Numbered from the stretch's first letter, positions 315 to 15,017 are shown. The stretch: 24,155 nt of DNA from a virus (IMGVR_UViG_3300021960_000494:1-24155); one strand, 5' to 3'. The notes: a model not told the origin generated them from the letters alone. Program-made: numbers and translations.

Positions 315-351
315 CCATTTCTTGCATACCAAACAAAATTAGAGGTATTTT

Positions 352-822: not shown

Positions 823-977
823 GTAGATACCAAATAGCTATGTGGTTTTGTAAAGATTGTGCATGGCTTTGGAAAACACTTAGTGCTGATCGTGAAACTG
901 AAGATCAGTGTCCTAGCTGCAATTCTTACAGATCTCAGCGAATTATAAAGCCAAAAGACACTAAAACTCTAGTATAA
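819..977 (+). CDS. Small zinc-ribbon protein (52 aa), absent from the ORF track
   Basis: MSRYQIAMWFCKDCAWLWKTLSADRETEDQCPSCNSYRSQRIIKPKDTKTLV has two CxxC pairs and an ATGA overlap with the upstream stop. Confidence 0.75.
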   Translation: MSRYQIAMWFCKDCAWLWKTLSADRETEDQCPSCNSYRSQRIIKPKDTKTLV

Positions 978-1056
978 CAAGTTAAAGTTTTGTATATTCT
1001 AGTATGTTGTTGCTCAAGGAGAGGACAACTTAATTAACTAGCATATAGGAGTTATT

Positions 1057-1515
1057 ATGAGAATAGCAAAAGTACCCCTTCATTTCAATCGAGATGAATT
1101 TTTAACACCCTTTGATAGAATGTTTGATGACATTCTTAGCACACAATTTCCAGAATTTGCACTTCAAAGTGGAATATCCTTTGAAAAAGGCTCTTTTCCA
1201 AGAGTAGATGTAGCAGATTACGATGATTCAGTAGTAATTATTGCTGAAATACCATCATTAAAGAAAGATGCCTTAAAAATAGAGGTAGATAAAGGTATTT
1301 TAAGTATTAGTGGAGATAAACATCAATTAGATGAAGATAATGTTCGTTATATACGTAAAGAGTTAAAACATTCATCGTTTAGACGATCTTTTAAGTTAGG
1401 AGAGGTTTTAGATGCCGATAATATAGTAGCAACTTTTGAAGATGGTGTTTTAAGAGTTGAAATACCTAAGAGTGAGCCAAGTGCTAATAGTAAACGGGTA
1501 GTAGACATAGTATAA
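1057..1515 (+). CDS. hsp20: Small heat-shock protein Hsp20/alpha-crystallin family
   Basis: PRVDVADYDDSVVIIAEIPSLKKDALKIEVDKGILSISG...F.RSFKL...IVATFEDGVLRVEIPK is the canonical alpha-crystallin pattern. AGGAG RBS at 1047-1051. Confidence 0.95.
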   Translation: MRIAKVPLHFNRDEFLTPFDRMFDDILSTQFPEFALQSGISFEKGSFPRVDVADYDDSVVIIAEIPSLKKDALKIEVDKGILSISGDKHQLDEDNVRYIRKELKHSSFRRSFKLGEVLDADNIVATFEDGVLRVEIPKSEPSANSKRVVDIV

Positions 1516-1677
1516 TGTGTATATATATATACTTATATATAGTAACCCGATTATGGGTATAGCTTAAAAATGGAGTTGTTGATATTGTTGAAGTTACAGG
1601 CACTAGATATGATTACCTATATCAAAATACAGTATGAGGGGTATAAATACCCTATATCTAAAAACGGGTATAGGTTA
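1485..1677 (-). other. Origin-like array: four degenerate TACCC-N6-GGGTA sites plus a TA-rich tract
   Basis: Sites at 1655-1670, 1620-1635, 1544-1559 and 1485-1500, with a (TA)n tract at about 1520-1541. Matches the array inside rep (9232-9425). Confidence 0.55.
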
Positions 1678-2280
1678 AAGGATTTGTTTTTCTTTTTCTA
1701 TAACAAGATTTTGCCAGGCTTCTTTCTGAGCGGGGGTCTTTCTTCCTTTTGGCAAAAGAGCAATCCCAACAACTCTAGCCCTATCTCTCCACTGTTTGGC
1801 CGTTTTTCTTTTTTTATTTTTTATTTCTTCGGCATTAAAAGTCTTAACTTTTACAGCTTCAATAGCTGAAGGCGGTTTTTTAGTGATAGGTTCTATTATT
1901 TCATCCTCTTCAACTACGGCAGCTTCTGTGATTTCAGCATTTAAAAACTTTTCAAAGGGGCTTTGGTGGTTAGCTACTTCAACTCTTTTTATTAGTTTAC
2001 CAGAATGCTCTAATACAAGTCTACCAGCTTGTACATTACCAGCTTCTGCTTCTCTGATCATTGAACTAAGCACTGCGGGCAGTTTAGAACCAAATGATAT
2101 CATATATCTTTGATAAAAAACTTCTACAAATTCTGGGTCTTTTAACCACTTGTGTATTGTTACTGATGAGACTCCCGATTCATCTGCAACATCTTTTATT
2201 CTTGCACTTGGTTGAGACACTAAAAGCTCTACAGCTCTTACTTTAGATGTCTTCCAATGGGTAGGTAAATTTATGCTCAT
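1675..2280 (-). CDS. HTH DNA-binding protein, probable terminase small subunit (phBC6A51-like)
   Basis: N-terminal HTH (ARIKDVADESGVSSVTIHKWLKDPEF) followed by a helical AEAGNVQAGRLVLEHSG segment typical of TerS-like proteins. GGAG RBS. Confidence 0.55.
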   Translation of the reverse strand: MSINLPTHWKTSKVRAVELLVSQPSARIKDVADESGVSSVTIHKWLKDPEFVEVFYQRYMISFGSKLPAVLSSMIREAEAGNVQAGRLVLEHSGKLIKRVEVANHQSPFEKFLNAEITEAAVVEEDEIIEPITKKPPSAIEAVKVKTFNAEEIKNKKRKTAKQWRDRARVVGIALLPKGRKTPAQKEAWQNLVIEKEKQIL

Positions 2281-2302
2281 TATCTCTCCGACTTTCTAGT
2301 TA

Positions 2303-2332
2303 ATATTACAGACTTTAAGTATACTAAGACAA
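2303..2332 (-). promoter_or_regulatory. Sigma70-like promoter for the TerS-like gene
   Basis: TTGTCT-18 nt-TAATAT on the minus strand, about 23 nt upstream of the ATG at 2280. Confidence 0.5.
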
Positions 2333-2347
2333 GAAACAAAGTTTCTT

Positions 2348-2407
2348 ATTTCTGCCGACCTAAATCCACTAATGGCAGAAATCCTACTATACAAGCATAA
2401 GTATAGT
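2348..2407. repeat. Two adjacent inverted repeats
   Basis: ATTTCTGCC (2348-2356)/GGCAGAAAT (2374-2382) and ACTATAC (2386-2392)/GTATAGT (2401-2407). Confidence 0.7.
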
Positions 2408-2733
2408 GGTGGGACATTCTTTTGGGCATTTCACGAGGAGAGGGGTAACTCGCTCTGCTATAAAACAATATACGGGTACGGGGGGTCAATTGCAAGGCCT
2501 AAATAAATAAATATGTTTTAGTTGACTTTCTCACATATTATATGTATGAGGCTTGGCATTATACAAATAAAGTAATTAAAGTGCTTGCATATTAAAATAA
2601 ATCGACTGATCGTACCAAATCCAGGGGATAATCATAAAGCCATATAGATAGCCGCCTTACTATGAGATACGGCCATTTAGGGCTAAATATGGAGGTTTAC
2701 TCTCTATAGAATTAAATTAGTTTTAATTGGTTG

Positions 2734-2762
2734 TTGACATTGTCATTCATAGTGTTTAAAAT
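2734..2762 (+). promoter_or_regulatory. Strong sigma70-type early promoter
   Basis: TTGACA-17 nt-TAAAAT with AT-rich upstream sequence, 32 nt before the ATG at 2795. Confidence 0.8.
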
Positions 2763-2794
2763 CAATTGTTAATTAAATAAAAAAGGGGTTAAAC

Positions 2795-2905
2795 ATGAGT
2801 GATAATATATTAATATTTAGTATTTTTCTTGGGTTGTTAGGGTTACTATTACCCTTAATTCATGCGGTTGTTTTTGAATTAATCAAACTATTTAAAAGGG
2901 GTTAA
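2795..2905 (+). CDS. Small hydrophobic membrane peptide (36 aa), absent from the ORF track
   Basis: MSDNILIFSIFLGLLGLLLPLIHAVVFELIKLFKRG. Its RBS/start context AAAAGGGGTTAAACATGA is identical to that of the next gene. Confidence 0.7.
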   Translation: MSDNILIFSIFLGLLGLLLPLIHAVVFELIKLFKRG

Positions 2906-2907
2906 AC

Positions 2908-3120
2908 ATGACACACACAAATAATAAAATGTTAAAGAAAAATAAAGCTTTTAATCATATTCTAGAAACCATAGAAGACCTAGAAACAATCGAAGACTTG
3001 ATACTATCTGAAGTTTTCAATACGGGAGATGATGAAAGAATGACACAATTTAGAGAATCATTAAATCATGCTAGAAATTTAATATGGTTTAAATACATAA
3101 ATAAAAAGGGAGAAAAATAG
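2908..3120 (+). CDS. Hypothetical protein (70 aa)
   Basis: ORF with AGGGG RBS, tightly packed in the operon. Confidence 0.75.
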   Translation: MTHTNNKMLKKNKAFNHILETIEDLETIEDLILSEVFNTGDDERMTQFRESLNHARNLIWFKYINKKGEK

Positions 3121-3121
3121 A

Positions 3122-3394
3122 ATGGATTTTATACACAATCACGCTATTGAAATTTGTATCGTATTTATGATAATAGGGTTACTAGGTGCAATGGGTTGTA
3201 TTGGTGGCCTAATTATGCTAGATATACAAGGCTATCGAAAGCGTAAAAAGGAGGAGTTGCAAAAAAAAGCTAAGATGGTTTTATGGCTTGCATCCAATAC
3301 TAATGAATTTGAATACTATGAAGCTTGCGAAAGTTTTGGTTTGTGTCCTAAAACTAGTGTGACGGAATTAATTTTGGGGGTTCATTGTGACTAA
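3122..3394 (+). CDS. Hypothetical membrane-anchored protein (90 aa)
   Basis: N-terminal hydrophobic helix ICIVFMIIGLLGAMGCIGGLIML followed by a basic RKRKKE stretch. GGGAG RBS. Confidence 0.7.
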   Translation: MDFIHNHAIEICIVFMIIGLLGAMGCIGGLIMLDIQGYRKRKKEELQKKAKMVLWLASNTNEFEYYEACESFGLCPKTSVTELILGVHCD

Positions 3395-4040
3395 ATCAGA
3401 AGCAAAATTAATTTTAGGTAGTGGACTTTCATGTACTTCAAAAATGCCTTGTTACAGTTTTAATTTGTCCGCATTGGATTGCAAGACGGGGTCAAAATTA
3501 GTAGGTTTAAAAGGGTCTGTCTGTGAAGGTTGCTACGCTTTAAGCGGTAATTATCAACGCTATAAATTACCTTTTAAGATGCAACCTAAAACGGAAAAAA
3601 TAAACAATCTTAAATGGGTTGATGCAATGACAAAATTAATTTTAAATCAAGGGAGTAAAAAAGACTCTAATTATTTTCGTTGGCATGATAGCGGAGACAT
3701 TCAAAGTGTAGAACATTTGAGAAAAATTGTTTTAGTTTGTTTAAAAACTCCAAAGGTCAAACATTGGATACCAACAAGAGAGTACAGAATAGTAAAAGAA
3801 TATCTAAATAAATACGGGCAATTCCCTTCGAATTTAGTTCTTAGGCTTTCAGCACATATGATTGACAAAAACGCACCAATGCTAAAATATAAGGGTCAAT
3901 TTTTGCCAACGTCGACAGTACATAAAAATAAGCCCGCTTTTGGTACAGAATGCGAAAGTTACAAGAATGACAATGAATGTAAGGAATGTCGCTTGTGTTG
4001 GAATCCTAAAATAAATAACATATCTTACAAATATCATTAA
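3387..4040 (+). CDS. GP88-family (mycobacteriophage gene product 88-like) Cys-rich, putative Fe-S/radical-SAM-like protein
   Basis: Motifs SKMP.YSFNL, C..GCYA, FRWHDSGD, HWIPTRE, P.NL.LRLS and C-terminal C-x7-C-x2-C-x2-CW...YH. Confidence 0.8.
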   Translation: MTKSEAKLILGSGLSCTSKMPCYSFNLSALDCKTGSKLVGLKGSVCEGCYALSGNYQRYKLPFKMQPKTEKINNLKWVDAMTKLILNQGSKKDSNYFRWHDSGDIQSVEHLRKIVLVCLKTPKVKHWIPTREYRIVKEYLNKYGQFPSNLVLRLSAHMIDKNAPMLKYKGQFLPTSTVHKNKPAFGTECESYKNDNECKECRLCWNPKINNISYKYH

Positions 4041-4058
4041 ATAACCCCTACCACAACG

Positions 4059-4085
4059 AAAGCCCCCTTTTTAGGGGGTTTTTTT
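4059..4085 (+). terminator. Rho-independent terminator
   Basis: GCCCCCT-TTTT-AGGGGGT stem-loop followed by a T run, about 20 nt after the GP88-like stop codon. Confidence 0.9.
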
Positions 4086-4089
4086 GTAT

Positions 4090-4189
4090 CTAGACCCGTT
4101 AAAATCGTCCCATATTCAAGATCTGTGGGGCTTTTATGGGTCTAGGCATACCTATGGCAGCCCGCTTGGATTTAAGCCGAATTTGAGCG
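4090..4189 (+). other. Two long imperfect hairpins (candidate ncRNA or ssDNA structure)
   Basis: CTAGACCCGT/ATGGGTCTAG encloses GTCCCATA/TGTGGGGC, and CGCTTGGATT pairs with AATTTGAGCG. The non-Watson-Crick pairs in these stems are G-U/G-T on the + strand. Confidence 0.5.
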
Positions 4190-4295
4190 AATTTAAGCCT
4201 TCTGTGATGATTGATTGACGACAGAATATACAAATGAGATTGCGTCTCAATAACAACAAATAACTAGGAATGATTACTACTTAGGAAATTTCTAG

Positions 4296-4339
4296 ATTTA
4301 TAATTTATATTTATAATTTATAATTTATATTTATAATTT
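4296..4339. repeat. Pure-AT tandem repeat
   Basis: ATTTATAATTTATATTTATA x2 plus ATTT (44 bp), built from ATTTAT(A) subunits. Confidence 0.9.
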
Positions 4340-4662
4340 GCTTGACTTCTAGTAAAACACTCCAATTTTATTTTGGACTGATCTTAAAATAATTCTTGAC
4401 TTTTAGAAAAAACATCGAACCACTTTTTGGTTGGACAAAATCCAGGGAAGTCAAGAACTTTTTTGTAAAATGTAAAAGTTTTTTTCATACTGCGTTTAAT
4501 ATGCCTATTTTAGCGTTTAGAGACATTTTTTAAGTACTCGACATCTAATATTAAAAAAGTTTTTTACGGCCAATGTGGTATGATCTTGGAGCTTGCCCCT
4601 CGGAGAAATTGAGCGGTAAATATAGTTATTGCTAGATTTATGAAAATAATTCAAAATATTAC

Positions 4663-4700
4663 TTGACTTTGATTGTTGATATAAATTAATCTTTATCAAC
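4663..4700 (+). promoter_or_regulatory. Sigma70-like promoter with overlapping inverted repeat (possible operator)
   Basis: TTGACT-18 nt-TAATCT. GTTGATA (4675-4681) and TATCAAC (4694-4700) bracket the -10 element. Confidence 0.6.
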
Positions 4701-4718
4701 TTAAAAAAAGGAAATACA

Positions 4719-5114
4719 ATGAAAACAATAAATGAGTTTAACAGAAATAATCTTGATATAATGAGAGCTTCTATAAATAGTAAATTAGCTGAATTAGAAT
4801 CTGATTTTAATATTAAGATTAAATTAGGTCGTATTAGTTATAGTGACAGTAATTTTACTTCTAAAGTGGAATGCAATCTTGTCAAAGATGGTCAAGTTAT
4901 TGAGACTATTGCTACTGATTTTGATAGGTATAAAGATGCTTGGGGATTGCAATTTTCTCTAGGGTATACTTTTTTATCTAATGATACCCGTTATAAAGTT
5001 GTTGGTTTAAAACCTAGGAATAGAAAATATCCCATTATCGCTGAAACATCTAGAGGCACAAGGTATAAATTCTCTGAAAATAAAATCAATGATATTTATG
5101 AGAGTAGTTTATAA
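4719..5114 (+). CDS. Hypothetical phage protein (131 aa)
   Basis: AAGGA RBS, first gene after the promoter, TAATG coupling to the next gene. Confidence 0.8.
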   Translation: MKTINEFNRNNLDIMRASINSKLAELESDFNIKIKLGRISYSDSNFTSKVECNLVKDGQVIETIATDFDRYKDAWGLQFSLGYTFLSNDTRYKVVGLKPRNRKYPIIAETSRGTRYKFSENKINDIYESSL

Positions 5115-5737
5115 TGAAGGTTCTTGATTTATTTGCGGGTTCAAGGTCATTTAGCAATATTGCTGATGGCCTTGGCCACGAGACATTTGCCGTTGATATT
5201 AATCCATTTGACGGCATCGATTATGTTACTGATATAATGGATTTTAACCCTAAAAAAGTACCCTTTAAACCCGATTTAATTTGGGCTTCTCCACCTTGTA
5301 CCACATTTAGCGTTGCTTCAATTGGTCATCATTGGGGTGGTGGTAAGCGTGGGTATATTCCTAAAACTGCTAATGCTTATAGAGGTATGGCATTTGTTAA
5401 GAAAACTCTAGAGATTATTGATTTTTATAAACCAAAGTATTGGTACATGGAAAATCCTAGAGGTGTACTTAGGAAATTAGATGTAGTCAAAGACTTACCT
5501 AAAAATACTATTTGGTTTTGTACTTATGGAGACGACAGAGCTAAGCCTACAGACATATGGAATAACGATTTAAATTGGATACCTAGACCCGTATGTAAGA
5601 ATGGTAATAAGGACTGTCATCATGCACCCGCTCCTAGAGGCTCAAGAACGGGTACACAAGGCCGTAAAAACAACTATGAGCGTAGTAAGTTGCCTAATGA
5701 ATTATGTCTTGAAATACTAGCAAATAAGGAGGTTTAA
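5114..5737 (+). CDS. Short DNA cytosine-C5 methyltransferase-like protein 1
   Basis: Motif I VLDLFAGS, motif IV WASPPC, motif VI MENPRG, followed by YG...KPTDIW. Only 207 aa. Confidence 0.85.
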   Translation: MKVLDLFAGSRSFSNIADGLGHETFAVDINPFDGIDYVTDIMDFNPKKVPFKPDLIWASPPCTTFSVASIGHHWGGGKRGYIPKTANAYRGMAFVKKTLEIIDFYKPKYWYMENPRGVLRKLDVVKDLPKNTIWFCTYGDDRAKPTDIWNNDLNWIPRPVCKNGNKDCHHAPAPRGSRTGTQGRKNNYERSKLPNELCLEILANKEV

Positions 5738-5956
5738 TTGAAATCATATAACAGAAAATATCCTAAGAAACAAAAATGGGTTGCTATTTATATTACTGAT
5801 TCATGTGACCCTATTGTTTATGGAATTTTTAAATCTGAAAAGTCTGCGAATGAATATGTAAAATATATGTACGAAAATGAATGGACAGAATATGAGCATA
5901 ATAACGATGCATATTTACAAGTAGAAGAAATTAGGGAGTTGACAATTGTTAAATAA
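5738..5956 (+). CDS. Hypothetical protein (72 aa)
   Basis: TTG start with a strong AGGAGG RBS. Confidence 0.7.
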   Translation: MKSYNRKYPKKQKWVAIYITDSCDPIVYGIFKSEKSANEYVKYMYENEWTEYEHNNDAYLQVEEIRELTIVK

Positions 5957-6104
5957 AAGTAAAGTACTAGCTGAATTACAACAGATGCAAATTGGTTTAG
6001 CTCATTCAGAGCGAAGGGATATTTATAATTTTCTTTATAGATTTCTTGATGGATGGGATGAAGAGTCAATTAAAATCTTATTAAATCAATACAAAAGGAG
6101 ATAA
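5946..6104 (+). CDS. Hypothetical protein (52 aa), absent from the ORF track
   Basis: TTG start after GGGAG. MLNKSKVLAELQQMQIGLAHSERRDIYNFLYRFLDGWDEESIKILLNQYKRR fills the gap exactly. Confidence 0.65.
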   Translation: MLNKSKVLAELQQMQIGLAHSERRDIYNFLYRFLDGWDEESIKILLNQYKRR

Positions 6105-6105
6105 A

Positions 6106-6744
6106 ATGAAAATACTAATAGCTTGTGAAGAGAGTCAATCAGTTACAAAAGCATTTAGAAAATTGGGTCACGAGGCATTTTCTTGTGACCTACTAGATGC
6201 TAGTGGTGGTCATCCCGAATGGCATATTAAAGGAGATGCTTTAAAGGAGGCTTATAGCGGTAAATATGACATGATGATTGCCCACCCACCATGCACTTAT
6301 CTAGCAGTAAGTGGTGCTAGGTGGATGTATAATAAAGACGGCTCAGTTAATCAAGAGAGGTTGCAAAATCAAAAAGATGCATTGCAGTTTGTTTATAGCT
6401 TAATGGATGCACCTATGGATAAGATTGCTATTGAAAATCCCGTAAGTGTAATTAGCTCTCAAATCAGAAAACCCGAACAAATAATTCAGCCTTGGCAGTT
6501 TGGTGATGAAGCTCAAAAGACTACTTGTTTGTGGTTGCATAACTTACCACAATTGAAGCCAACTAAAATTGTTGGTAAGGGCGAGTTTATTGAATGGACA
6601 GATAAGAATGGTAGGAAGAAAAAACAAGCCAAGTGGTATCTTGAAGCTCTTTCAAAAGCAAAAACCAATGCAGAACGTAGGACTCTAAGAAGCAAGACTT
6701 TCCAAGGGATAGCAGATGCAATGGCACAACAATGGGGTTTATAA
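6106..6744 (+). CDS. Short DNA cytosine-C5 methyltransferase-like protein 2 (LIACEES type)
   Basis: MKILIACEESQ, SCD, motif IV AHPPCTYL, motif VI IENPV, QPWQFG...KTTCLWL, C-terminal RSKTFQGIADAMAQQWG. Confidence 0.85.
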   Translation: MKILIACEESQSVTKAFRKLGHEAFSCDLLDASGGHPEWHIKGDALKEAYSGKYDMMIAHPPCTYLAVSGARWMYNKDGSVNQERLQNQKDALQFVYSLMDAPMDKIAIENPVSVISSQIRKPEQIIQPWQFGDEAQKTTCLWLHNLPQLKPTKIVGKGEFIEWTDKNGRKKKQAKWYLEALSKAKTNAERRTLRSKTFQGIADAMAQQWGL

Positions 6745-6962
6745 TGAGAATGAACAGAGAAGATCTGAAAAATCCGTTAACAAAAGTTAAAAAAGGTTGT
6801 GCTAATCATAATACGGGTCACAAATGTTCGGGCATAATGATTAATCGACAATTGCAGCAATGGATAAATTCGGAAATGTGCGAGAAGATTTGCCTTATAA
6901 AAGAGGGTAAATCATGTGATTATTTTACTAACATAGTTGAACCATCAATAAAGGAGTTATAA
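6744..6962 (+). CDS. Cys-rich small protein (Cys_rich_VLP-like)
   Basis: CANH....KC...C...C...CDYF..IVEP. Start moved to the TAATG-coupled ATG at 6744. Confidence 0.55.
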   Translation: MRMNREDLKNPLTKVKKGCANHNTGHKCSGIMINRQLQQWINSEMCEKICLIKEGKSCDYFTNIVEPSIKEL

Positions 6963-7117
6963 TGGAGGACTTGGATTATATTAGAAAGCAACCATTTGAT
7001 ATATATGAAAAACTTAAAAAATATCACAAAGCACTTAGTGAGATAGCTAATTGCTCAGAGCAAGGGAATCCAATTTATTTAAAAAAAATAGCAAGAGAGG
7101 TATTAGAAGATGGCTAA
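6962..7117 (+). CDS. Hypothetical protein (51 aa), absent from the ORF track
   Basis: AAGGAG RBS and TAATG coupling. MEDLDYIRKQPFDIYEKLKKYHKALSEIANCSEQGNPIYLKKIAREVLEDG. Confidence 0.7.
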   Translation: MEDLDYIRKQPFDIYEKLKKYHKALSEIANCSEQGNPIYLKKIAREVLEDG

Positions 7118-7271
7118 GATAAAAATAGATAAGAAATCAAAAAGAGTTTATAATATGCTACAGCGATTAGATGTTATAAAATACATAAAAGAAAATGAAA
7201 CAATTACTCAAGATCAGTGGAAAAATCTTGTCGATGCAATTTACTATGAGGTTTATAATGAAAAAATATAA
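7110..7271 (+). CDS. Hypothetical protein (53 aa), absent from the ORF track
   Basis: GAGG RBS. MAKIKIDKKSKRVYNMLQRLDVIKYIKENETITQDQWKNLVDAIYYEVYNEKI. Confidence 0.65.
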   Translation: MAKIKIDKKSKRVYNMLQRLDVIKYIKENETITQDQWKNLVDAIYYEVYNEKI

Positions 7272-7416
7272 AAAATTAATAAGAATATTGAAAGCCTATG
7301 ATATATCTCAATCAAATTATATAGGTGGATTAGAAGATTACGATGATTGGATAGAATTTATTGATAATATTGATAAATCTATTAATAGTAAAAGTTGGCG
7401 GTGGTTAACTAAATAG
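7258..7416 (+). CDS. Hypothetical protein (52 aa; start corrected from 7195)
   Basis: GAGG RBS before ATG 7258 (MKKYKKLIRIL...). Confidence 0.65.
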   Translation: MKKYKKLIRILKAYDISQSNYIGGLEDYDDWIEFIDNIDKSINSKSWRWLTK

Positions 7417-7424
7417 GAGAAAAA

Positions 7425-7625
7425 ATGATAAAAAATGATTATATTGAAAAAGAACAGATATTAAGAAAATGCATCAAGTTTATAAGGTCACTATGGGTAC
7501 ATACTGAAGGAGAAGACTTGGGGCAATACTCAATATTAAAAAAAGAAATGAATATATTATCAGATAAAGTAAATGATATTATAATTGAATTGGATGCTTA
7601 TGAGCAAAATAAAAACAAATCTTAA
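7425..7625 (+). CDS. Hypothetical protein (66 aa)
   Basis: AGGAG RBS and operon packing. Confidence 0.7.
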   Translation: MIKNDYIEKEQILRKCIKFIRSLWVHTEGEDLGQYSILKKEMNILSDKVNDIIIELDAYEQNKNKS

Positions 7626-7953
7626 CCTATCTAAAAGAATAGTCTCTCAATACGAACTAAATACAAGTATTGCTATTATGGATAATATAGGAGACTGTGG
7701 ATTTTATAGCGTTTTAAGTGATACAATATATCTTAATAAATCTTATAATTCTTATGCTGAGTTTTTATTAACCTTATTACATGAAATTTGTCATGCATTA
7801 GATAATAAAAGATTGGGAAAAAAGTTTATTAAGAAGTACAATCAAGCATCTCAAGTAGCTACTTATTATGGTTTAAATGCCCATGATTATAATAAGTGGG
7901 AGATCAGAGCAGAAAAATGGGCAAAAAAGGAGTACAACAATGGAAAACTATAG
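7600..7953 (+). CDS. Zinc metallopeptidase-like protein (ImmA/IrrE-like HExxH)
   Basis: GFY....TIYLN...TLLHEICHAL, with a downstream NKWEIRAE as candidate third zinc ligand. Start position uncertain. Confidence 0.7.
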   Translation: MSKIKTNLNLSKRIVSQYELNTSIAIMDNIGDCGFYSVLSDTIYLNKSYNSYAEFLLTLLHEICHALDNKRLGKKFIKKYNQASQVATYYGLNAHDYNKWEIRAEKWAKKEYNNGKL

Positions 7954-8218
7954 AAGAAAAACAGATGCAAACATCGAATCTTTAAAGTACTATTTTAAAG
8001 ATAAGGAATGGTTTGATAAGACAACTTATACTAAAGGTAGGCAATTTGATTATTGGAGCAATAAGGCAACTGCAATACCGCCCAAAAGATGTCCTAAATG
8101 CAAAAGAGCTTTTCAAATGCTCATTCAGAATGTTGACCATAGGCCTTATACGTATTTATTAAGTGCATTGTTTGTTAATGTTAGATTAGAAAAGGAGATT
8201 TGCCATGAATGTAAGTGA
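7940..8218 (+). CDS. Zinc-finger hypothetical protein (start corrected from 7877)
   Basis: AAGGAG RBS before ATG 7940, with CPKC...CHEC. Confidence 0.65.
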   Translation: MENYRRKTDANIESLKYYFKDKEWFDKTTYTKGRQFDYWSNKATAIPPKRCPKCKRAFQMLIQNVDHRPYTYLLSALFVNVRLEKEICHECK

Positions 8219-8831
8219 TAAGTTAATATTGGATTTATGTGGTGGTACGGGTTCTTGGGCTAGACCTTATAAAGAGGCGGGTTATAATGTAAAAACAATA
8301 ACTATTCCCGAATATGATATTGTAAAATGGCGACAATACCAAGATATCTATGAGCCTATAATGGCAAATGAGGTTTATGGTATCCTGGCCGCTCCGCCTT
8401 GTACGATGTTTAGTTATGCTAGAACAAATGCTAAAACTCCTAGGAATTTTCAAGAAGGTATGTACACAATACAAGCTTGCATGGAAATTATTTGGCAATC
8501 TCAAATGTGTTTTGAAGCTAGTTATACAAAAAAATCTAGATTAAAATTTTGGAGTTTAGAAAATACGGGTGGTTTTTTAAAGAATTTTCTAGGTAAACCT
8601 ATTTATACTTTTAATCCGTATGACTTTGGAGATAATTATAAGAAAAAAACTTGCCTTTGGGGATGGTTTAATGAACCTATAAAAAATCCAATTGATTGTG
8701 ATATGCCTAAGTTTGATCGGTTATCGACAAAAGATATTCATGGAGAATTTTACGGCAAATTAACTAGGACTGAAAGAAGAAGTATTACACCCCAAGGGTT
8801 TGCCAATGCATTCTTTGAAGTTAATAAATAG
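8205..8831 (+). CDS. Short DNA cytosine-C5 methyltransferase-like protein 3
   Basis: Motif I ILDLCGGTGSW, motif IV LAAPPCTMFS, motif VI variant LENTGG, PYDFGD.YKKKTCLWG, C-terminal RSITPQGFANAFFEVN. Confidence 0.85.
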   Translation: MNVSDKLILDLCGGTGSWARPYKEAGYNVKTITIPEYDIVKWRQYQDIYEPIMANEVYGILAAPPCTMFSYARTNAKTPRNFQEGMYTIQACMEIIWQSQMCFEASYTKKSRLKFWSLENTGGFLKNFLGKPIYTFNPYDFGDNYKKKTCLWGWFNEPIKNPIDCDMPKFDRLSTKDIHGEFYGKLTRTERRSITPQGFANAFFEVNK

Positions 8832-8832
8832 T

Positions 8833-8861
8833 TTGCGGATAGGTTTATAATTGGTTAATAT
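8833..8861 (+). promoter_or_regulatory. Sigma70-like promoter of the replication operon
   Basis: TTGCGG-17 nt-TAATAT in the gap before rep. Confidence 0.5.
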
Positions 8862-8895
8862 AGACATATCAAAAAGGAGATTCAATAAAGTTTTT

Positions 8896-8958
8896 GCGTG
8901 GTTTATGTTGAGGGTTGGTTTCCTCCTTTTTTCCAGCCCTCCACGCTTAGCAAAGGAG
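8896..8958 (+). promoter_or_regulatory. Leader hairpin with an anti-Shine-Dalgarno loop upstream of rep
   Basis: GAGGGTTGG/CCAGCCCTC and GCGTG/CACGC stems. The loop TTTCCTCCTTTTTT is complementary to the rep SD AAAGGAG. Confidence 0.6.
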
Positions 8959-8963
8959 ATTAT

Positions 8964-9761
8964 ATGAAAAGTGCTTACATGGGTTTTATACCCGCAAATG
9001 TTAGGTATGATAACAGCCTATCTGCTAGAGATAAGGTTATATATTCAGAGATTACAGCAACCATTGATGGCGATAAATGTAAAAAAGGCAATGCCTACTT
9101 TGAAAAAATATTTAATATATCAAGTACAACTCTTGGCAATTGTTTAAGAAGTTTAAGAGAAAATGGTTATATTGAAGTTCATATTGAAAAAGCTAAAAAC
9201 AGTCATAAAGTTTTAAATCGTTATATATACCTACCCTGTACCAATAAACGGGTAGGGGTAGAACAAGAATTAGAAACACCCTCTACCCAAAATGTGATAG
9301 GGGTAAATTCTAGATCAGAGGAGGATTTATCAAATAAAGAGCAAAAATCATCTCAAAATCGGGCTACATCTTATAGTAATAAGATAACATATATAAACTC
9401 TGATAGGTACACTAAAAATCGGGTAGAGTTATTGCCTGAAATTAATTCTAAGCAAGTAGAATATTTAGATAGCATTGTTAGAAAGTTTTACACAAGAAAA
9501 AGAGAACAACTACCAAATGTTATACATTCAGAGTGGCATAAAGATAAGACTCTTATAAATGATTCTATTAATACTCTTTATATGATTATAAAATTAGATG
9601 ATTATGATGAGAAGTTGGTTAAAAATGTATTAAATTGGGCAATTGATGAAAAGTTTTGGCATTTAAATCTTACATCTTTAAGAGGTCTTAGAAAGAAATC
9701 TAATAATGGTCAAAGTAAGTTTACCAATATTTATTTAAAATACAAACAAGGAGAACAATAA
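8964..9761 (+). CDS. Phage replication initiator / replisome organizer (N-terminal HTH_36-type winged helix)
   Basis: IPANVRYDNSLSARDKVIYSEI...NAYFEKIFNISSTTLGNCLRSLRENGYIEV, a low-complexity linker containing iteron-like DNA, and a C-terminal WAIDEKFW..N..S...LRKK. AAAGGAG RBS supports the start at 8964. Lies upstream of the helicase. Confidence 0.8.
   Translation: MKSAYMGFIPANVRYDNSLSARDKVIYSEITATIDGDKCKKGNAYFEKIFNISSTTLGNCLRSLRENGYIEVHIEKAKNSHKVLNRYIYLPCTNKRVGVEQELETPSTQNVIGVNSRSEEDLSNKEQKSSQNRATSYSNKITYINSDRYTKNRVELLPEINSKQVEYLDSIVRKFYTRKREQLPNVIHSEWHKDKTLINDSINTLYMIIKLDDYDEKLVKNVLNWAIDEKFWHLNLTSLRGLRKKSNNGQSKFTNIYLKYKQGEQ
9232..9425 (+). other. Probable replication origin inside rep (iteron-like palindromes plus AT-rich tract)
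   Basis: TACCA-ATAAAC-GGGTA (9239), TACCC-AAAATG-TGATA (9284), ATCTC-AAAATC-GGGCT (9350) and CACTA-AAAATC-GGGTA (9410), with AT-rich DNA at 9368-9400. The intragenic location is as in lambda O. Confidence 0.65.
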
Positions 9762-9762
9762 A

Positions 9763-9900
9763 ATGGAGACAATATTCGGAATAGTAGTGTTAGCTACATT
9801 ATGTGGATTATTGGTATTAGTGGCATATTTAAAAACTGAATTAAATATTGCTGAAAATAGAATAGATGATTTGGAGTTTTTGTATGACCTTCGAAAGTAA
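9763..9900 (+). CDS. Small membrane peptide (45 aa), absent from the ORF track
   Basis: AAGGAG RBS. METIFGIVVLATLCGLLVLVAYLKTELNIAENRIDDLEFLYDLRK. Confidence 0.7.
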   Translation: METIFGIVVLATLCGLLVLVAYLKTELNIAENRIDDLEFLYDLRK

Positions 9901-11557
9901 GGGCATATTTATAAGAGGTACAAGTGGTCAAGAAAAAACAAAATGCCCTGAATGTTCGCCAGGAAGAAAGAAATCTTTTGACCCATGCTTGTCTGTTAAT
10001 ATAGATGAAGGTGTTTGGAATTGCCATCATTGTGGTTGGAAAGGTTCTTTAATGAAATCAAATAAAACATTTACAGCTCCTTTGATCCAAAAACCAAAGC
10101 AAGAAGTAATAACAGATTTACCTATTGAAATAGTTAATTGGTTTGTCGATAGAGGTATTTCTGAGGAAACACTAACTGCTGAGAAAATTGGATATAGTAA
10201 TGGTTGGATACAATTTCCTTTTTATAAAGAAGAAGAAGTTGTCAATATCAAATATCGTAAGGTTGATAAATCATTTAAGCAAGAGAAAAATGCAGAGAAA
10301 TGTTTTTATAGGTTTGACCACTTACAAGGTATGAAGACAATTATTATAACTGAAGGAGAGATGGATGCTTTATCAATAGTAGAGAGCGGACTAAATAATG
10401 TAGTATCTGTTCCAGATGGAGCAACTGCACCAAATTCTAATCCTACAGATAGAAAGTTTAGCTACCTTATATCTGCTGAAGACCATTTTATGAATGCAGA
10501 TACTGTAATACTATGTACTGATAGCGATGCATCTGGAAAGCATTTAAGAGAAGAGCTTTCTAGGAGGATAGGTAGAGAAAAATGTTTTAGAGTTACCTAC
10601 CCATTAGATTGCAAAGATATGAATGAGGTTCTAGTAAAGCATGGTCAAGATAGGGTTATGGAAGTTATTGCTAATGCACATCCTTATCCAATTGATGGTG
10701 TAGTAACTATAGGAGATGTTACAGAAGAAGCTATTGATTTATTAAATAAGCCTGAACATATGGGGCTATCAACGGGTTGGGTAGATATAGATAGTTTTTA
10801 TAGAGTAAGCCCTAGTGAAGTAACTGTTATAACGGGTGTACCTAATATGGGTAAATCAGAATGGATGGATGCTTTAATGATAAATATGATACAAGACTAT
10901 GGTTGGAAGTTTGGGATATTTTCAGCAGAGAACTTTCCTGTTAAGCATCACTTATTAAAATTAGTTGGTAAATTTGCATCTAAGCCTTTTTATGGTGAAG
11001 AAAAAATGTCTGAAGAAACTGCAAGAAACTCTATGGCAATACTAGATGACCATATTAAATTTATAGGTACACAAGAAAATTCAGTTACCATAGCTTCAAT
11101 TATGGAGCAAGCTAGACTGCTTAATTATAGGTTTGGTTTAAATGGATTGGTGGTTGACCCTTGGAATACACTAGAACATAAATTTGGAGATGGGGAAAAT
11201 GAGACTAATTATGTATCAAGAGTTTTGTCAGAGCTTAGTGCTTTTGCTAAACTTAATGAAATACATATTTGGGTAGTGGCTCATCCTAGAAAAATGGAAA
11301 ACGACAATAACAGAAGACCCGTAGTGCCATCACCTTACGATATCAGTGGATCAGCTAATTGGTTTAATAAATGTGATAATGCAATCACTATCCATAGACA
11401 TAGAAGCGATGAGGATGATTATGTGGGTGTTCATGTACATAAAATTAGATTCCAATATAAAAATGGCAAACCTGGAATGGGTAAGTTAAACTATAACGTA
11501 AAAACAGGAAAGTATATTTACCATGAAGAAAAACCTAAAGAAAATCTTTTTGGATAG
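9884..11557 (+). CDS. Bifunctional DNA primase-helicase (T7 gp4/Twinkle-like)
   Basis: Zinc domain CPEC...CHHCGWKG, TOPRIM ITEGEMDALS, SVPDGA, DSDASG and KDMNE, Walker A TGVPNMGKSEW, VVDPWN, VAHPRK, DISGSANW. GGAG RBS before ATG 9884. Confidence 0.95.
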   Translation: MTFESKGIFIRGTSGQEKTKCPECSPGRKKSFDPCLSVNIDEGVWNCHHCGWKGSLMKSNKTFTAPLIQKPKQEVITDLPIEIVNWFVDRGISEETLTAEKIGYSNGWIQFPFYKEEEVVNIKYRKVDKSFKQEKNAEKCFYRFDHLQGMKTIIITEGEMDALSIVESGLNNVVSVPDGATAPNSNPTDRKFSYLISAEDHFMNADTVILCTDSDASGKHLREELSRRIGREKCFRVTYPLDCKDMNEVLVKHGQDRVMEVIANAHPYPIDGVVTIGDVTEEAIDLLNKPEHMGLSTGWVDIDSFYRVSPSEVTVITGVPNMGKSEWMDALMINMIQDYGWKFGIFSAENFPVKHHLLKLVGKFASKPFYGEEKMSEETARNSMAILDDHIKFIGTQENSVTIASIMEQARLLNYRFGLNGLVVDPWNTLEHKFGDGENETNYVSRVLSELSAFAKLNEIHIWVVAHPRKMENDNNRRPVVPSPYDISGSANWFNKCDNAITIHRHRSDEDDYVGVHVHKIRFQYKNGKPGMGKLNYNVKTGKYIYHEEKPKENLFG

Positions 11558-11732
11558 AATTGAAAAGCTACCTAATAACGCTGGCAAAAGCGAAGATTAT
11601 CACTTAAAAAAAATGTGTAAGAAACTACACGATGAGTTTGATAAAATATGGGTTAGGTATAACAATAACAAGTCTACTTATAATCAATGGGAAAAAGCAA
11701 TGAATAAGTGGCTAAGTGCGGAGTGCATATGA
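11523..11732 (+). CDS. Hypothetical protein (69 aa)
   Basis: Fills the gap between helicase and phosphoesterase, with ATGA coupling at the 3' end. Start uncertain. Confidence 0.6.
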   Translation: MKKNLKKIFLDRIEKLPNNAGKSEDYHLKKMCKKLHDEFDKIWVRYNNNKSTYNQWEKAMNKWLSAECI

Positions 11733-12490
11733 AAGTAAAAAGATACGTAGTAACACCAGATAAACATTTTCCATTACATGACCAAAAGGCCATTAATGTA
11801 TTATGTAAGGCAATAGAGATTATACAACCTGATGGTTATATAGACCTCGGAGATGTGGGAGAATTTTCAAGTACTTCCCACTGGCAATGGGCAAAAAAGA
11901 AGAGGCCGCCGTTGGAATATCAATTACCATTTGTTCATAAAGATATATTCGATGTTAACCAAGGTATGGATATGATTGATGAATCATTGGATAAGGCAAA
12001 TGTAAAAATCAAACATTTTGTTGAAGGTAATCACGATGATTGGTTAAATAAATTTGTTGTAGAAAATCCTTATTTAGATGATTTAAGATTTCCTAAAGCA
12101 GTAAGACTTAAGGAAAGAGGCTATAGATATCATAAAATAGGCAAGTTACTTAGAATAGGTAAGCTTAATTTTTATCATGGCCATCATTATGCGGGTGTAC
12201 AGCATACTAGGAATCACTTAATTAGAATGGGTGGTAATGTAATGTATGGACACCACCATGATATTCAGCAGTCTTCAGTGACTCATATTGATGGAGCAAA
12301 ATCTGCTTGGAGTATTGGATGTTTAAAAGATATGACTGCTGAAGCAAATGCTTGGCTAGGAAATAGAGCAGTTAATTGGGGTCATGCTTTCGCTATAGTT
12401 GATTTTTACCATAGTGGATTATTTACAGTTCATATAGTTCAAATTATTGATGGTAAAACATCACTATGGGGAGAGTTAATTAAAGGTTGA
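11729..12490 (+). CDS. Calcineurin-like metallophosphoesterase
   Basis: Motifs PDKH, LGDVGE, EGNHD, YHGHH, YGHHH. GGAG RBS and ATGA overlap support the start at 11729. Confidence 0.9.
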   Translation: MKVKRYVVTPDKHFPLHDQKAINVLCKAIEIIQPDGYIDLGDVGEFSSTSHWQWAKKKRPPLEYQLPFVHKDIFDVNQGMDMIDESLDKANVKIKHFVEGNHDDWLNKFVVENPYLDDLRFPKAVRLKERGYRYHKIGKLLRIGKLNFYHGHHYAGVQHTRNHLIRMGGNVMYGHHHDIQQSSVTHIDGAKSAWSIGCLKDMTAEANAWLGNRAVNWGHAFAIVDFYHSGLFTVHIVQIIDGKTSLWGELIKG

Positions 12491-12541
12491 CAGTCTATAA
12501 GTTACATTAGTAGTTTTTAACTAACAAATAAGGAGAATATA

Positions 12542-12826
12542 ATGTATTACAATACAACTAAACAAGATGGTAATGATTTAAAAAGTTACAAATCTAAAGC
12601 GTTGTCACAAGAAGCTAAGATATTAAATTATTTTACTGTAAAAGGCAAGGCAACTCCCACTGAAATATGGTCAAGAATGTCAGCAGATGCTTTGCTTACA
12701 TCAGTTAGAAGGTGTATTACTAACTTAACTAAGTCAGGTCGTTTAATTAAAACTAAAGTAAAGAAGACTAGTATTTATGGTCGTCCAGAGTATGTATGGG
12801 AATTTAACTTAGAGGGGAACTTATAA
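12542..12826 (+). CDS. Winged-helix DNA-binding protein
   Basis: ATPTEIW...TSVRRCITNLTKSGRLIKT....SIYGRPEYVW. AAGGAG RBS. Confidence 0.7.
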   Translation: MYYNTTKQDGNDLKSYKSKALSQEAKILNYFTVKGKATPTEIWSRMSADALLTSVRRCITNLTKSGRLIKTKVKKTSIYGRPEYVWEFNLEGNL

Positions 12827-13077
12827 TGAAGGAATATGACCGATTTAATACTTATTATGGGACAATTGTGTGGACAAATCCTAATACAATCAAAGATAAA
12901 AGCGTTACAATTCATAGGGCTTCACTTCGAGATCTTATAGAGGGAGTAGAGGAACATCTAGAAAAGTATAAGTCTAGAAAAGCTTTTATGGAGTCTTGTG
13001 CTGTTCAACATGACTTGAAAGATGGGATATCTGAATGGACAGATATTACAGAAATGGTGCAAAAAGAACTTAACTAA
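12826..13077 (+). CDS. Hypothetical protein (83 aa)
   Basis: TAATG coupling and GAGGGG RBS. Confidence 0.7.
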   Translation: MKEYDRFNTYYGTIVWTNPNTIKDKSVTIHRASLRDLIEGVEEHLEKYKSRKAFMESCAVQHDLKDGISEWTDITEMVQKELN

Positions 13078-13088
13078 CAGGAGTAAGA

Positions 13089-13571
13089 ATGGAAACAACA
13101 CAACTAAAAATACCAACTAACGGAAGTGCAGTAGTCGAATTAATGTTTGACAATTGTAAGCAAGGTACTAATGATTATGGCAATTGGAATCTTTATGGTT
13201 TGAAAAGTGAGGGGCAAGATGTAAGTCTTTTTGCTACTGACTTACTGCATGAAAAGATGAAGTATTATTCTACGGGCGATGTGGTACAGATTAATAAGAA
13301 TGAAACTGATCAAGGTCGTATTCAGTGGGAGGTTATACCTAAAAATGGTACACCTGCAAGGGATGCATCTAACTCTACTGCAGCTCCAGTTCAATCTGTA
13401 GTTAGTGGTAAATCTACTGATAGTAGGACTGCTGATATACATAAGCAAGTATGTTTAAAGCTTGCAGTGCAGAGTATGGGAGATGATTTTGATGTAGAAG
13501 AGATTGAATCCAGGATGTATAGCTTATTGAGTGTGTTGCATGGTAGTGAATCAGATGGTCTACCGATCTAG
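13089..13571 (+). CDS. Putative single-stranded DNA-binding protein
   Basis: Beta-rich N-terminal domain, flexible linker and an acidic C-terminus ESDGLPI resembling SSB DDIPF tails. Lies in the replication/recombination cluster. Confidence 0.5.
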   Translation: METTQLKIPTNGSAVVELMFDNCKQGTNDYGNWNLYGLKSEGQDVSLFATDLLHEKMKYYSTGDVVQINKNETDQGRIQWEVIPKNGTPARDASNSTAAPVQSVVSGKSTDSRTADIHKQVCLKLAVQSMGDDFDVEEIESRMYSLLSVLHGSESDGLPI

Positions 13572-13922
13572 TTGAAGAAACCATTAATAAAGAAGTTAGA
13601 TAATGCGTGGGCTAAGAAAATTAGAGAATATGGTATGTGTGAAAACTGCCATAAAACAAAACCGCTTAATGCTCACCATTTCTACTCTAGGTCTATTCGT
13701 GTTGTGCGTTGGGACTTAAGAAATGGTTTTTGTTTGTGTGTTGGATGTCATGTTTTTTCGTCAAATTTTTCAGCTCATAAAACTCCCGCAGAGTTTGTTG
13801 AATGGGCTATTGAAAAGCGTGGCATCCAGTGGTATGAAGATTTAAAAATGAAAAAAAATTCAATGATTAAGTACGTAGATGCTGATTATGATTTAATTTA
13901 TAATGACATCTGGGGAGTATAG
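13572..13922 (+). CDS. ninG: NinG/Rap-like HNH endonuclease (probable junction resolvase)
   Basis: KKLD.AWAKKIR...CENC...AHHFYSR....VRWDLRNGFCLCVGCH. Confidence 0.75.
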   Translation: MKKPLIKKLDNAWAKKIREYGMCENCHKTKPLNAHHFYSRSIRVVRWDLRNGFCLCVGCHVFSSNFSAHKTPAEFVEWAIEKRGIQWYEDLKMKKNSMIKYVDADYDLIYNDIWGV

Positions 13923-14025
13923 AATTGCCCCTTAATTTTAATAATAAACAGTGGTTTGAAATAAACTGTTTGACTGAAATGAATTGGCGTTCATGGGGCA
14001 AAAAAATTAATATAAGGAGTACAAT

Positions 14026-14142
14026 ATGATAGAAGTAATGTTAATGTTTGTATTAGGGTTGGTTATTTATAATAGTAAATTGTGGGAAGATGGAATGTGG
14101 GAAACCACTAAATCTAAATGGGTATATTGGAGAAGTAAATGA
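14026..14142 (+). CDS. Small Trp-rich hydrophobic peptide (38 aa), absent from the ORF track
   Basis: TAAGGAG RBS. MIEVMLMFVLGLVIYNSKLWEDGMWETTKSKWVYWRSK, with ATGA overlap to the next gene. Confidence 0.65.
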   Translation: MIEVMLMFVLGLVIYNSKLWEDGMWETTKSKWVYWRSK

Positions 14143-14459
14143 AAGTGCCTGATTTTATAAAGTGGGCAAAGTCAATGCAAAAAGAAGAGAATAGACTTAT
14201 GCTAGTTAAGGGTGAAGAGTATACTGTCTCTGATGAAGATAAGTTTAAAAACTTTAAAAGCATTGCTGAACGAATGGGGTTAAGTGCAGAGCAAGTTACT
14301 ATGATATATCTACTTAAACATATGGACTCTATTAGGAATTATATTCATACGGGCAAAGAATCAAGTGAAGAATCTATTATGGGTAGAATACACGATGCTA
14401 GAAACTACTTATTATTACTAGGTGGTATCATTGAGGAGCGTAATTCTGTCAAAAAATAA
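14139..14459 (+). CDS. Nucleotide-modification-associated domain (DUF1599/Nmad1-like) all-alpha protein
   Basis: KGEEY...D...NF...KH.D.I...ESI.GRI.DARNYLLLL pattern. Confidence 0.55.
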   Translation: MKVPDFIKWAKSMQKEENRLMLVKGEEYTVSDEDKFKNFKSIAERMGLSAEQVTMIYLLKHMDSIRNYIHTGKESSEESIMGRIHDARNYLLLLGGIIEERNSVKK

Positions 14460-14685
14460 ATTTGGATCAATTCAATGGGTCATAGATGCCTTATATAGTG
14501 ATGTAAAGGAAAAAACCCATAGAAGGCCTAGGGAAACTGACGAAATACGGGCAGATAGAAACTTATCTTGGTGTCCTGGATGCAGTCGTAAATGGAATAT
14601 GTATGAAGGTCGCTTATGGGCATCTACAGATATAAAATTATGGAAGGAAAAAGTATGTCCAAAATGCGATTCCCCTGCGAAATAA
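14422..14685 (+). CDS. Zinc-ribbon hypothetical protein
   Basis: WCPGC...VCPKC. Start uncertain and probably slightly downstream of 14422. Confidence 0.6.
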   Translation: MVSLRSVILSKNKFGSIQWVIDALYSDVKEKTHRRPRETDEIRADRNLSWCPGCSRKWNMYEGRLWASTDIKLWKEKVCPKCDSPAK

Positions 14686-15017
14686 AAAACGGCAAATTAA
14701 TTATTACAAATAGAGATGAATTTGATAATACTATTAGTAATTATAGTGGTAACTACTATCTTGAACTAACTGAAACGGGAGTAAGATCTTCACAGCAAAA
14801 TAATTATTATTGGAAGATTGTAGATTTATTAGCAGAAGATTTAGGATACACTAACCAAGAAATGCATCAAGCAATCAAAGACCATTTTAATATAGATAGT
14901 ACAAAAGTCTTAACTACAAAAGAATTTTCACAGTTTATAGAGCGTATAATTAGATGGGCAGCAATTGATTTAAATGTTGTAATTCCAGATGTTAAAACTC
15001 TTCTTCAATCTTCATAG
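14655..15017 (+). CDS. ninB: NinB/Orf-like recombination protein
   Basis: RSSQQNNYYW...G....EMH..IK..F...STK.LTTKEFS.FIE.I...A....V.IPD. Confidence 0.7.
   Translation: MSKMRFPCEIKNGKLIITNRDEFDNTISNYSGNYYLELTETGVRSSQQNNYYWKIVDLLAEDLGYTNQEMHQAIKDHFNIDSTKVLTTKEFSQFIERIIRWAAIDLNVVIPDVKTLLQSS

Follow-up and report, generated by a model that had tools for sequence, protein, structure and literature searches.

Here we describe a 24,155-nucleotide (nt) stretch of viral DNA (IMGVR_UViG_3300021960_000494:1-24155, hereafter the window), which is part of the circular 38,441-bp genome of an uncultured marine phage (G001; 2 mismatches), and a block of its early region, positions 2137 to 8932, from which two short asymmetric words, CCAG/CTGG and CAGG/CCTG, have been erased on both strands except inside the palindrome CCWGG. 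This gap is the product of selection on the DNA sequence, and its most probable explanation is that the DNA which is first to enter, or first to be expressed, avoids a host defence. The first-pass annotation of this DNA had proposed selection against a host defence directed at a single word, CCDG, and possibly methyl-dependent, acting only on DNA that enters before counter-defence genes are expressed; selection on DNA in the early block adjoining the terminase small-subunit gene (terS) is borne out and host defence is still the best explanation of it, whereas the single CCDG word is not supported.

The limits of the empty stretch given in that annotation are exact: between the CTGG at 2133 and the CCAG at 8933, the words CCAG, CCTG, CTGG and CAGG occur solely within CCWGG pentamers at 2621, 4442 and 8384. 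When the non-palindromic sites are counted as CCWGH on both strands, the 6,796-nt block holds 0 of the 104 sites in the window, compared with 40.7 expected from the rest of it (binomial p 1e-15). Around the full circle the gap spans 6,801 nt. No other gap exceeds 1,011 nt, and 20,000 random placements produced none above 2,531 nt; the whole genome has 0 sites in 6.8 kb and 224 in the next 29.5 kb. A codon shuffle, which had been suggested as a check, predicts 9.3 and 16.5 sites in the early genes when their proteins are kept fixed (0 and 0 observed), and the intergenic DNA of the block is equally empty (0 sites against 7.5 expected). The early genes of the block all lie on one strand, and on this coding strand each of the four strand forms is absent (0 against 4.7, 4.3, 8.3 and 9.5 expected). 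Since all four strand forms and the intergenic sites are at zero, the target must be double-stranded DNA and not mRNA.

Codon choice reveals how the sites were lost. In the early genes, proline before a G is encoded by CCC in 8/8 cases, compared with 3/50 when it does not precede a G and 4/61 in the late genes (Fisher p 9e-8), and threonine, alanine or serine codons of the form NCx that precede GG are NCG in 9/9 cases, compared with 10/199 elsewhere in the early genes and 9/140 in the late ones (Fisher p 5e-11). Because CCGG is banned throughout the genome, CCC (proline before G) and NCG (before glycine) are the only codons that escape both words, and as these replacements run against the AT bias and are impossible by deamination, they denote selection rather than the decay of methylated sites. 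The GC-rich synonymous workarounds noticed on first reading are genuine, and the conspicuous CCCG/CGGG is a true excess in the block (24 against 9.4).

The same substitutions are visible gene by gene. The short C5 cytosine methyltransferase-like gene M1 carries CCC GAT, CCC GTA, GCG GGT and ACG GGT where its relatives show CCT G, GCA GG and ACA GG; a 76-amino-acid (aa) gene, the best marker of in-place erasure, has ACG GGT and TCG GGC in place of ACA/ACT GG and TCA/TCT GG; and the GP88-family gene has synonymously lost the CCWG sites found in its homologues from other phages (64-66% identity). Across the 22 relative loci supplied for the orthologue comparison (alignments of at least 45% identity), at positions with unchanged amino acids the site was kept at 0 of 25 distinct positions in early genes and at 14 of 64 in middle genes. 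G001 nests among non-purged relatives with 99/99 support (38 primase rows), and the genes that it has in common with the nearest of these (the 76-aa gene, a 66-aa gene and a zincin) lost their sites in place.

The ban is specific to the two words. CCA and CCT by themselves are not depleted in the block (163 against 175, and 143 against 122), and a general ban on CAG/CTG was rejected: the CAG deficit of the early genes (49 against 74) is explained by CCAGH and DCAGG, the remaining contexts being near expectation. Three additional words, GTAGA, GGAAC and CAGC, were unremarkable under codon shuffling. We likewise discarded a type III-like orientation bias, as the residual depletion outside the block tracks the coding strand and not one direction of the genome. 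CCGG had been listed among the words purged from this region and is indeed missing there, but it lies outside the regional signal because the genome has no copy of it anywhere (0 against 35.5); GCGC, CGCG and GGWCC are likewise missing from all 38.4 kb. The reported abundance of CTAG turned out to be marginal only (33 of 90 in the block, 22 expected, p 0.049 uncorrected), and its reading as the C-to-T product of CCAG is not supported, given that there is no decay signature and that the sites were replaced by third positions in C or G.

The gap and its surroundings comprise the following elements (40 window proteins were scanned against Pfam and PHROGs profiles):

2137..8932, both strands: block free of CCAG/CTGG and CAGG/CCTG outside CCWGG (word counts and shuffles)
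1675..2280, minus strand: terminase small subunit, terS (PHROGs 24579/2538, E 3e-10); its start codon marks where the gap begins on the left
2281..2907: divergent intergenic region, with terS leading away leftward and the early genes rightward; candidate place of the packaging start
2621..2625: spared CCWGG, intergenic
3387..4040, plus strand: GP88-family gene (Pfam PF17338, E 1e-22)
4442..4446: spared CCWGG, intergenic
5114..5737, plus strand: M1, short C5 cytosine methyltransferase-like gene (PF00145, E 3e-7; phrog_757)
6106..6744, plus strand: M2, short C5 methyltransferase-like gene (phrog_757, E 1.5e-66)
6732..6962, plus strand: 76-aa gene, a member of the early block in 16/16 family loci examined
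7594..7953, plus strand: small zincin-like metallopeptidase (PF18818, E 8.5e-6, below the cut-off; phrog_7245, E 1.8e-6)
8205..8831, plus strand: M3, short C5 methyltransferase-like gene (phrog_757, E 1.3e-34)
8933..15000, plus strand: partly purged zone extending to ninB (23 sites, 3.8 per kb)
8964-9761, plus strand: replication initiator, inside the partly purged zone
9866-11557, plus strand: primase-helicase, inside the partly purged zone

The genome runs rightward through terL, portal-like and head-type genes and an Hsp20 gene (the portal label reflects position only, with no match in Pfam), then through terS on the opposite strand and the divergent intergenic region into the rightward early genes, small unassigned ones among them; these are followed by the replication initiator, the primase-helicase, ninG and ninB, after which the tail and head genes run leftward. 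Per kb, there are 6.1 sites on the left side of the gap, 0 inside it, 3.8 in 8933-15000 and 8.6 beyond. Of the two limits originally proposed for the block, the left one stands, while the right one at 8933 is not sharp: it is a gradient that fades through the replication genes. In a relative that shares the full pattern (G004) sites sit 18-106 nt inside terS and the gap starts after them, which places the left edge at or just upstream of the terS start codon. The packaging block itself looks inverted, with terS on the opposite strand from the terL-portal-Hsp20 run and pointing towards it (on the circle, terL lies ~5 kb further left); the genes for scaffold and capsid point away from terL, and the layout of another family locus, L363, is identical. 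The best sigma-70-like match in the divergent region lies at 2734-2762, and such matches are not in excess overall (37 against 38.5 in shuffles). Behind the GP88-family gene, a strong terminator-like hairpin at 4058-4083 matches on both strands and is followed by ~630 nt with no convincing gene. The sequence holds no notable repeats and the G001 record no long one, only an 87-nt overlap of its ends that is placed elsewhere than the purged block.

The palindrome CCWGG is exempt. It is not depleted in the block (3 against 3.9 expected; 3 of 13, p 0.48), and the early blocks of G004 and its near-identical relative G005 contain three and two copies, respectively. Tolerance of CCWGG together with GCWGC characterizes the loci with the full pattern, five of 33 family loci, with one more showing it partly; the other 27 have 0-3 and 0-2 copies. 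Two unrelated phages with a gap, G009 and G010, retain both palindromes as well. The tolerance is more likely a host-level signature, with the pattern set by the host group. The intergenic spared sites, within 2617-2628 and 4438-4449, have a common context, AAATCCAGGG, and in G004, G005, L363 and L382 a CCWGG is found ~320-330 nt upstream of terS in sequence that does not align. The third site, within 8381-8392 in M3, lies in a GC-rich ATC CTG GCC just ahead of the catalytic Pro-Pro-Cys codons, where a CCWGG and a GGCC overlap although AT-rich synonyms are available, and has possibly been kept for self-regulation.

Other palindromes behave differently from lineage to lineage. GGCC occurs 16 times in the locus of this phage and 0-2 times in the 32 other family loci, and nine of the 17 GGCC of the window lie in 2137-8932; M3 is carried by this phage alone among the 33. 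The case for M3 as a GGCC methylase is nonetheless mixed, as the locus of its 88% homologue has five GGCC and that of its 60% homologue none. GATC is absent from the nearest relatives (L003, L004, L005, L006, L025 and L028), at or above expectation in L007 and L008, and at about half of it in this phage. Palindrome bans thus change quickly within one clade.

The two words are purged separately in relatives, and hence CCAG and CAGG are independent asymmetric words. Among ten near-complete family genomes, both are purged in G001, G004 and G005; G002 and G011-G013 have lost CCAG and not CAGG; G014 purges CAGG and GAGT; and in the early region of G015 CAGG/CCTG is purged (3 against 13.2) while CCAG/CTGG is in excess (30 against 19.1). 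L363 combines a 9.0-kb CCAG gap with seven CCWGG and 15 CAGG-type sites inside it, and its stretch from terS to rep is free of methyltransferase genes. When 120 non-palindromic 4-mers were screened blindly in every 5-kb window, the top word gap started between -500 and +2000 nt of the terS start in seven of the ten genomes, with words that differ; as the early block differs in composition, and as G004 and G005 are not independent of each other, this is supportive and not a clean count. Further words are low in some loci: in the early genes of L041 and L027 (G014) GAGT/ACTC is present 3 times against 18.5 expected and normal elsewhere, with CTCC/GGAG also low near terS, and in the M1-bearing L046, L053, L013, L061, L062, L064 and L117 GAAG/CTTC is reduced early (~21-31 against 36-51), normal elsewhere, and mostly spared as GAAGA.

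The arrangement also recurs outside the family. G009 has a 4,222-nt CCAG gap that begins 79 nt from the terS start and includes four CCWGG, and G010, a 65-kb phage, has a gap of 4,694 nt; both sit, as in G001, where leftward genes give way to a rightward series of small ones. Immediately ahead of the block purged in G010 (L312:9829-11713) we recognized GroES/GroEL-like genes by eye.

We propose that host defence enzymes reading CCAG and CAGG on unmodified double-stranded DNA would attack the DNA that is first to enter and to be expressed. The readers would be restriction-modification-like systems of the host with short asymmetric sites that vary among host strains. In other phages the DNA packaged last is ejected first. 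Here packaging would start near the terS start codon and proceed leftward, taking in terS and then the virion genes. The early block would accordingly be packaged last and ejected first with its terS-proximal part leading, an order that matches the direction of the density gradient; the products of the block would then shield the rest of the genome. CCWGG may be spared by a mark carried in the virion from the previous host, either a Dcm-like 5-methylcytosine (5mC) or an N6-methyladenine (m6A) placed by either system, given that CCAG and CAGG share the adenine of CCAGG. A bolder version, which we regard as possible but doubtful, is that marine bacteria carry undescribed defences that read 4-bp words with a central AG (CCAG, CAGG, GAAG, GAGT and CAGT), are swapped between strains and can stop a phage only within the first 5-9 kb adjoining terS, small and possibly headful siphoviruses included, with CCAGG escaping through m6A on the shared adenine. 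On this version, a purged word and its edge would disclose the entry end and the host defence motif from sequence alone.

Contig ends offer some information on where packaging might begin. Among 140 distinct terS loci, 44 end within 500 nt upstream of terS and seven downstream; the ends are scattered over 9-490 nt with no single cut, and their clustering is explained as well by assemblies breaking at a variable region as by a packaging start. When positions 1-4250 of the window were compared with four viromes, contigs began at 2439-2449 in three, while the fourth covered terS and stopped at 2354; this material is fragmentary and of low depth, and we gave it no weight. No RNA polymerase was found among the 40 proteins scanned.

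A number of observations weigh against avoidance of a host defence at the leading end. terS and the genes to its left retain sites at 6.1 per kb, contrary to what one would expect of a leading end with a long terminal redundancy. The nearest cultured terminases, including those of Microbacterium cluster EF phages, are only 30-31% identical; cluster EF is listed as circularly permuted (PMC7302621), and this likeness weakly hints that our phage may package by the headful mechanism, for which, as in circularly permuted phages, regional avoidance is not expected by the account in PMC12455610. The order of entry is confounded with that of expression. Three of the ten genomes have their top blind match elsewhere, and nearly every relative has a reduced CCWGH density in its early block, for the most part an effect of composition. 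Searches turned up no enzyme with CCAG or CAGG specificity, the Pfam and PHROGs scan no clear anti-restriction gene among the block genes, and the search for a host none, the best genome matches (primase, 42-43%) being to a Neomarinimicrobiota bin, Achromobacter and Comamonas; capsid matches were obtained in five of 401 genomes of the phylum of that bin (23-36% identity). We also found no close cultured phage, and Hsp20 loci added nothing new. Finally, the survey in PMC6286503 describes asymmetric type I and IIG sites as not avoided genome-wide.

The three methyltransferase-like genes all fall within the gap, as first noted, and bear on several of the alternatives. M1, M2 and M3 possess the PC and EN motifs (P62, C63, E110 and N111 are invariant in seven aligned proteins), and the glycine-rich motif I for S-adenosylmethionine binding is present in M1 and M3, while M2 and its close homologues have an acidic stretch instead. 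A model of M2 (predicted local distance difference test score 72) has its best matches in DNMT1, DIM-2, M.HaeIII and M.HhaI, none at E <= 0.001; a sequence search of the PDB returned no match for M2, and no characterised close homologue was found for any of the three, which we regard as predicted C5 methyltransferase-like proteins. Relaxed phage C5 enzymes are described as ~700 aa long (PMC5537653, PMC6536676). M2 is common to G001 and G004/G005 (75%), is not required for the gap pattern, and has carriers in only two lineages of the family. As for counter-defence, the zincin weakly matches an anti-restriction family and is also present in non-purged relatives. The early block of G015, which purges CAGG only, encodes an ArdA-family anti-restriction gene (L057:4936-5496, PF07275, E 1.6e-13). 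Early-block gene content is highly variable across the family.

Other explanations deserve consideration. A host protein that binds or modifies DNA at the two words could block the first operon, the genome entering quickly and whole so that the timing of expression is what matters; we consider this unlikely, although the gradient tracks the early, middle and late temporal classes, the residual depletion outside the block follows the coding strand, and packaging may, on slender grounds, be headful. The purge of intergenic DNA and of both strand orientations speaks against it, and no such reader of CCAG or CAGG was found in the open-access literature. That the words are protospacer-adjacent motif contexts of clustered regularly interspaced short palindromic repeats (CRISPR), or targets of another sequence-reading defence biased to leading DNA, would suit their being short, asymmetric and lineage-specific, and a leading-region bias is mentioned for plasmids in PMC12455610; it is quite improbable, since CCA and CCT alone are not depleted, the complete purge exceeds what spacer-dependent targeting should demand, and the CCWGG exemption is left unexplained. 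Import of the early module from a phage that avoids CCWG genome-wide accords with the variable gene content, yet it is extremely unlikely: shared genes lost their sites in place, an orthologous loss that largely refutes it, G001 nests among non-purged relatives, and no donor with a genome-wide purge was present among the loci fetched.

The remaining alternatives invoke methylation. LpnPI, an enzyme of the methyl-dependent MspJI family, has the site CCDG, and the phage might itself methylate CCDG and be cut there by such an enzyme, as the annotation had envisaged; CCAG, CCTG and CCGG are all missing from the block and three C5 methyltransferase-like genes are at hand. We deem this very improbable, because CCWGG, a match to CCDG on either strand, is spared all the same (also in the gaps of L363, with seven, and G009, with four), relatives lose CCAG and CCTG independently, neither of them varying together with CCGG, itself lost genome-wide, and no C-to-T decay is seen. 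Moreover, L363, G002, G014 and G015 are purged without an M1-M3 homologue in the block, and the sparing of CCWGG in L363, together with the separate loss of the words, argues against the phage's own methylases as well as an LpnPI-type reader. Just as little credit goes to the idea that M2 methylates CCWGG protectively and CCWGH as a near-cognate site, so that self-methylation is selected against in the early block. Among the first 78 family loci only L001 (this phage) and L007-L009 had M2, and only these showed the gap and CCWGG tolerance, and G009 and G010 carry M2 inside their gaps; but just three of 60 M2 loci of at least 8 kb have a gap at p < 1e-5, several lack CCWGG altogether, the family carriers amount to two lineages, and L363 (16.3 kb of genome seen) shows the CCAG gap and the tolerance with no M2 in its block. 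M2 as the cause is therefore weakened by the loci that have it and no gap, and undercut by L363. Mutational decay, in which deamination of 5mC would have converted CCWG to CTWG, most rapidly in early genes under weak constraint, can be given next to no credence: raised counts in the block (CTAG 33 against 22, CCAA/TTGG 67 against 48, CCTA/TAGG 62 against 39) point its way, but the CCC and NCG codons, A/T-to-C/G changes at third positions, largely refute it, and CTAG, marginal here, is near or above expectation in most gap-free relatives.

If avoidance of a host defence by first-entering DNA is indeed the cause, a rule familiar from T5- and T7-like phages, by which only the first DNA must dodge host sites, would extend to small, abundant marine long-tailed phages, possibly including headful packagers, contrary to a 2025 prediction (PMC12455610). 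It would also account for the failure of genome-wide surveys to detect avoidance of asymmetric sites, since this is confined to one region. In practical terms, two 4-bp words could be sought in marine methylomes; the fingerprint of CCWGG and GCWGC kept while CCAG and CAGG are purged early could tie three unrelated phage groups to one host group; and the candidates for counter-defence would be narrowed to ~16 genes.

Known systems resemble this one in part. MspJI cuts Dcm-methylated CCWGG (PMC2938202); for its family, CCAG and CCTG fit the CCDG of LpnPI, but G001 spares CCWGG and its words vary independently. Type III and MANTIS systems combine short asymmetric sites and adenine hemimethylation with strand-biased avoidance in phages (bioRxiv 10.64898/2026.09.23.753747); their sites, as presented there for MANTIS, are 6 bp long and avoided on one strand genome-wide, whereas G001 loses 4-bp words on both strands in one region, and the one-strand depletion expected of such systems is not seen, all four strand forms being at zero. 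A marine Marinimicrobia genome has a 4-base asymmetric methylation motif, CTCC, with an orphan N4-methylcytosine methylase (PMC8919816), evidence that asymmetric words of 4 bp do occur in marine bacteria, and CTCC/GGAG is the second blind match near the G014 block; CCAG and CAGG do not appear in the main text of that source. In its text, the open-access literature searched gave no report of regional CCAG/CAGG avoidance or of a CCWG system, and plasmid leading regions are described as not consistently depleted of palindromes (PMC13478746).

The closest parallels are leading regions. Murciavirus (Autographiviridae) phages lack an asymmetric type I site in the early region and tolerate it in the rest of the genome, and, as in our family, the early region is variable, with proposed counter-defence genes (PMC12455610); in T5 and BF23, restriction sites matter only in the first-step-transfer DNA, the block that enters first (PMC10644984). 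G001 likewise lacks its motif in one region, has it elsewhere, and lost it through selection on DNA, and by analogy it may work as these leading regions do and can be regarded as a candidate member. There are clear differences as well: the T5 account has a 9.7-kb terminal repeat, two-step injection and a 114-kb genome (PMC10644984), compared with the 87-nt end overlap and gradual fade of G001, and that of Murciavirus a single long bipartite motif in a T7-like phage with fixed ends and staged entry (PMC12455610), compared with two 4-bp words, ~40 expected sites gone by codon change and a small long-tailed genome. What G001 and its relatives add to these systems is the use of asymmetric words of 4 bp, the complete removal of ~40 sites at the level of codons in a small long-tailed genome, the switching of words between lineages at a fixed position, and the exemption of a palindrome that contains them.

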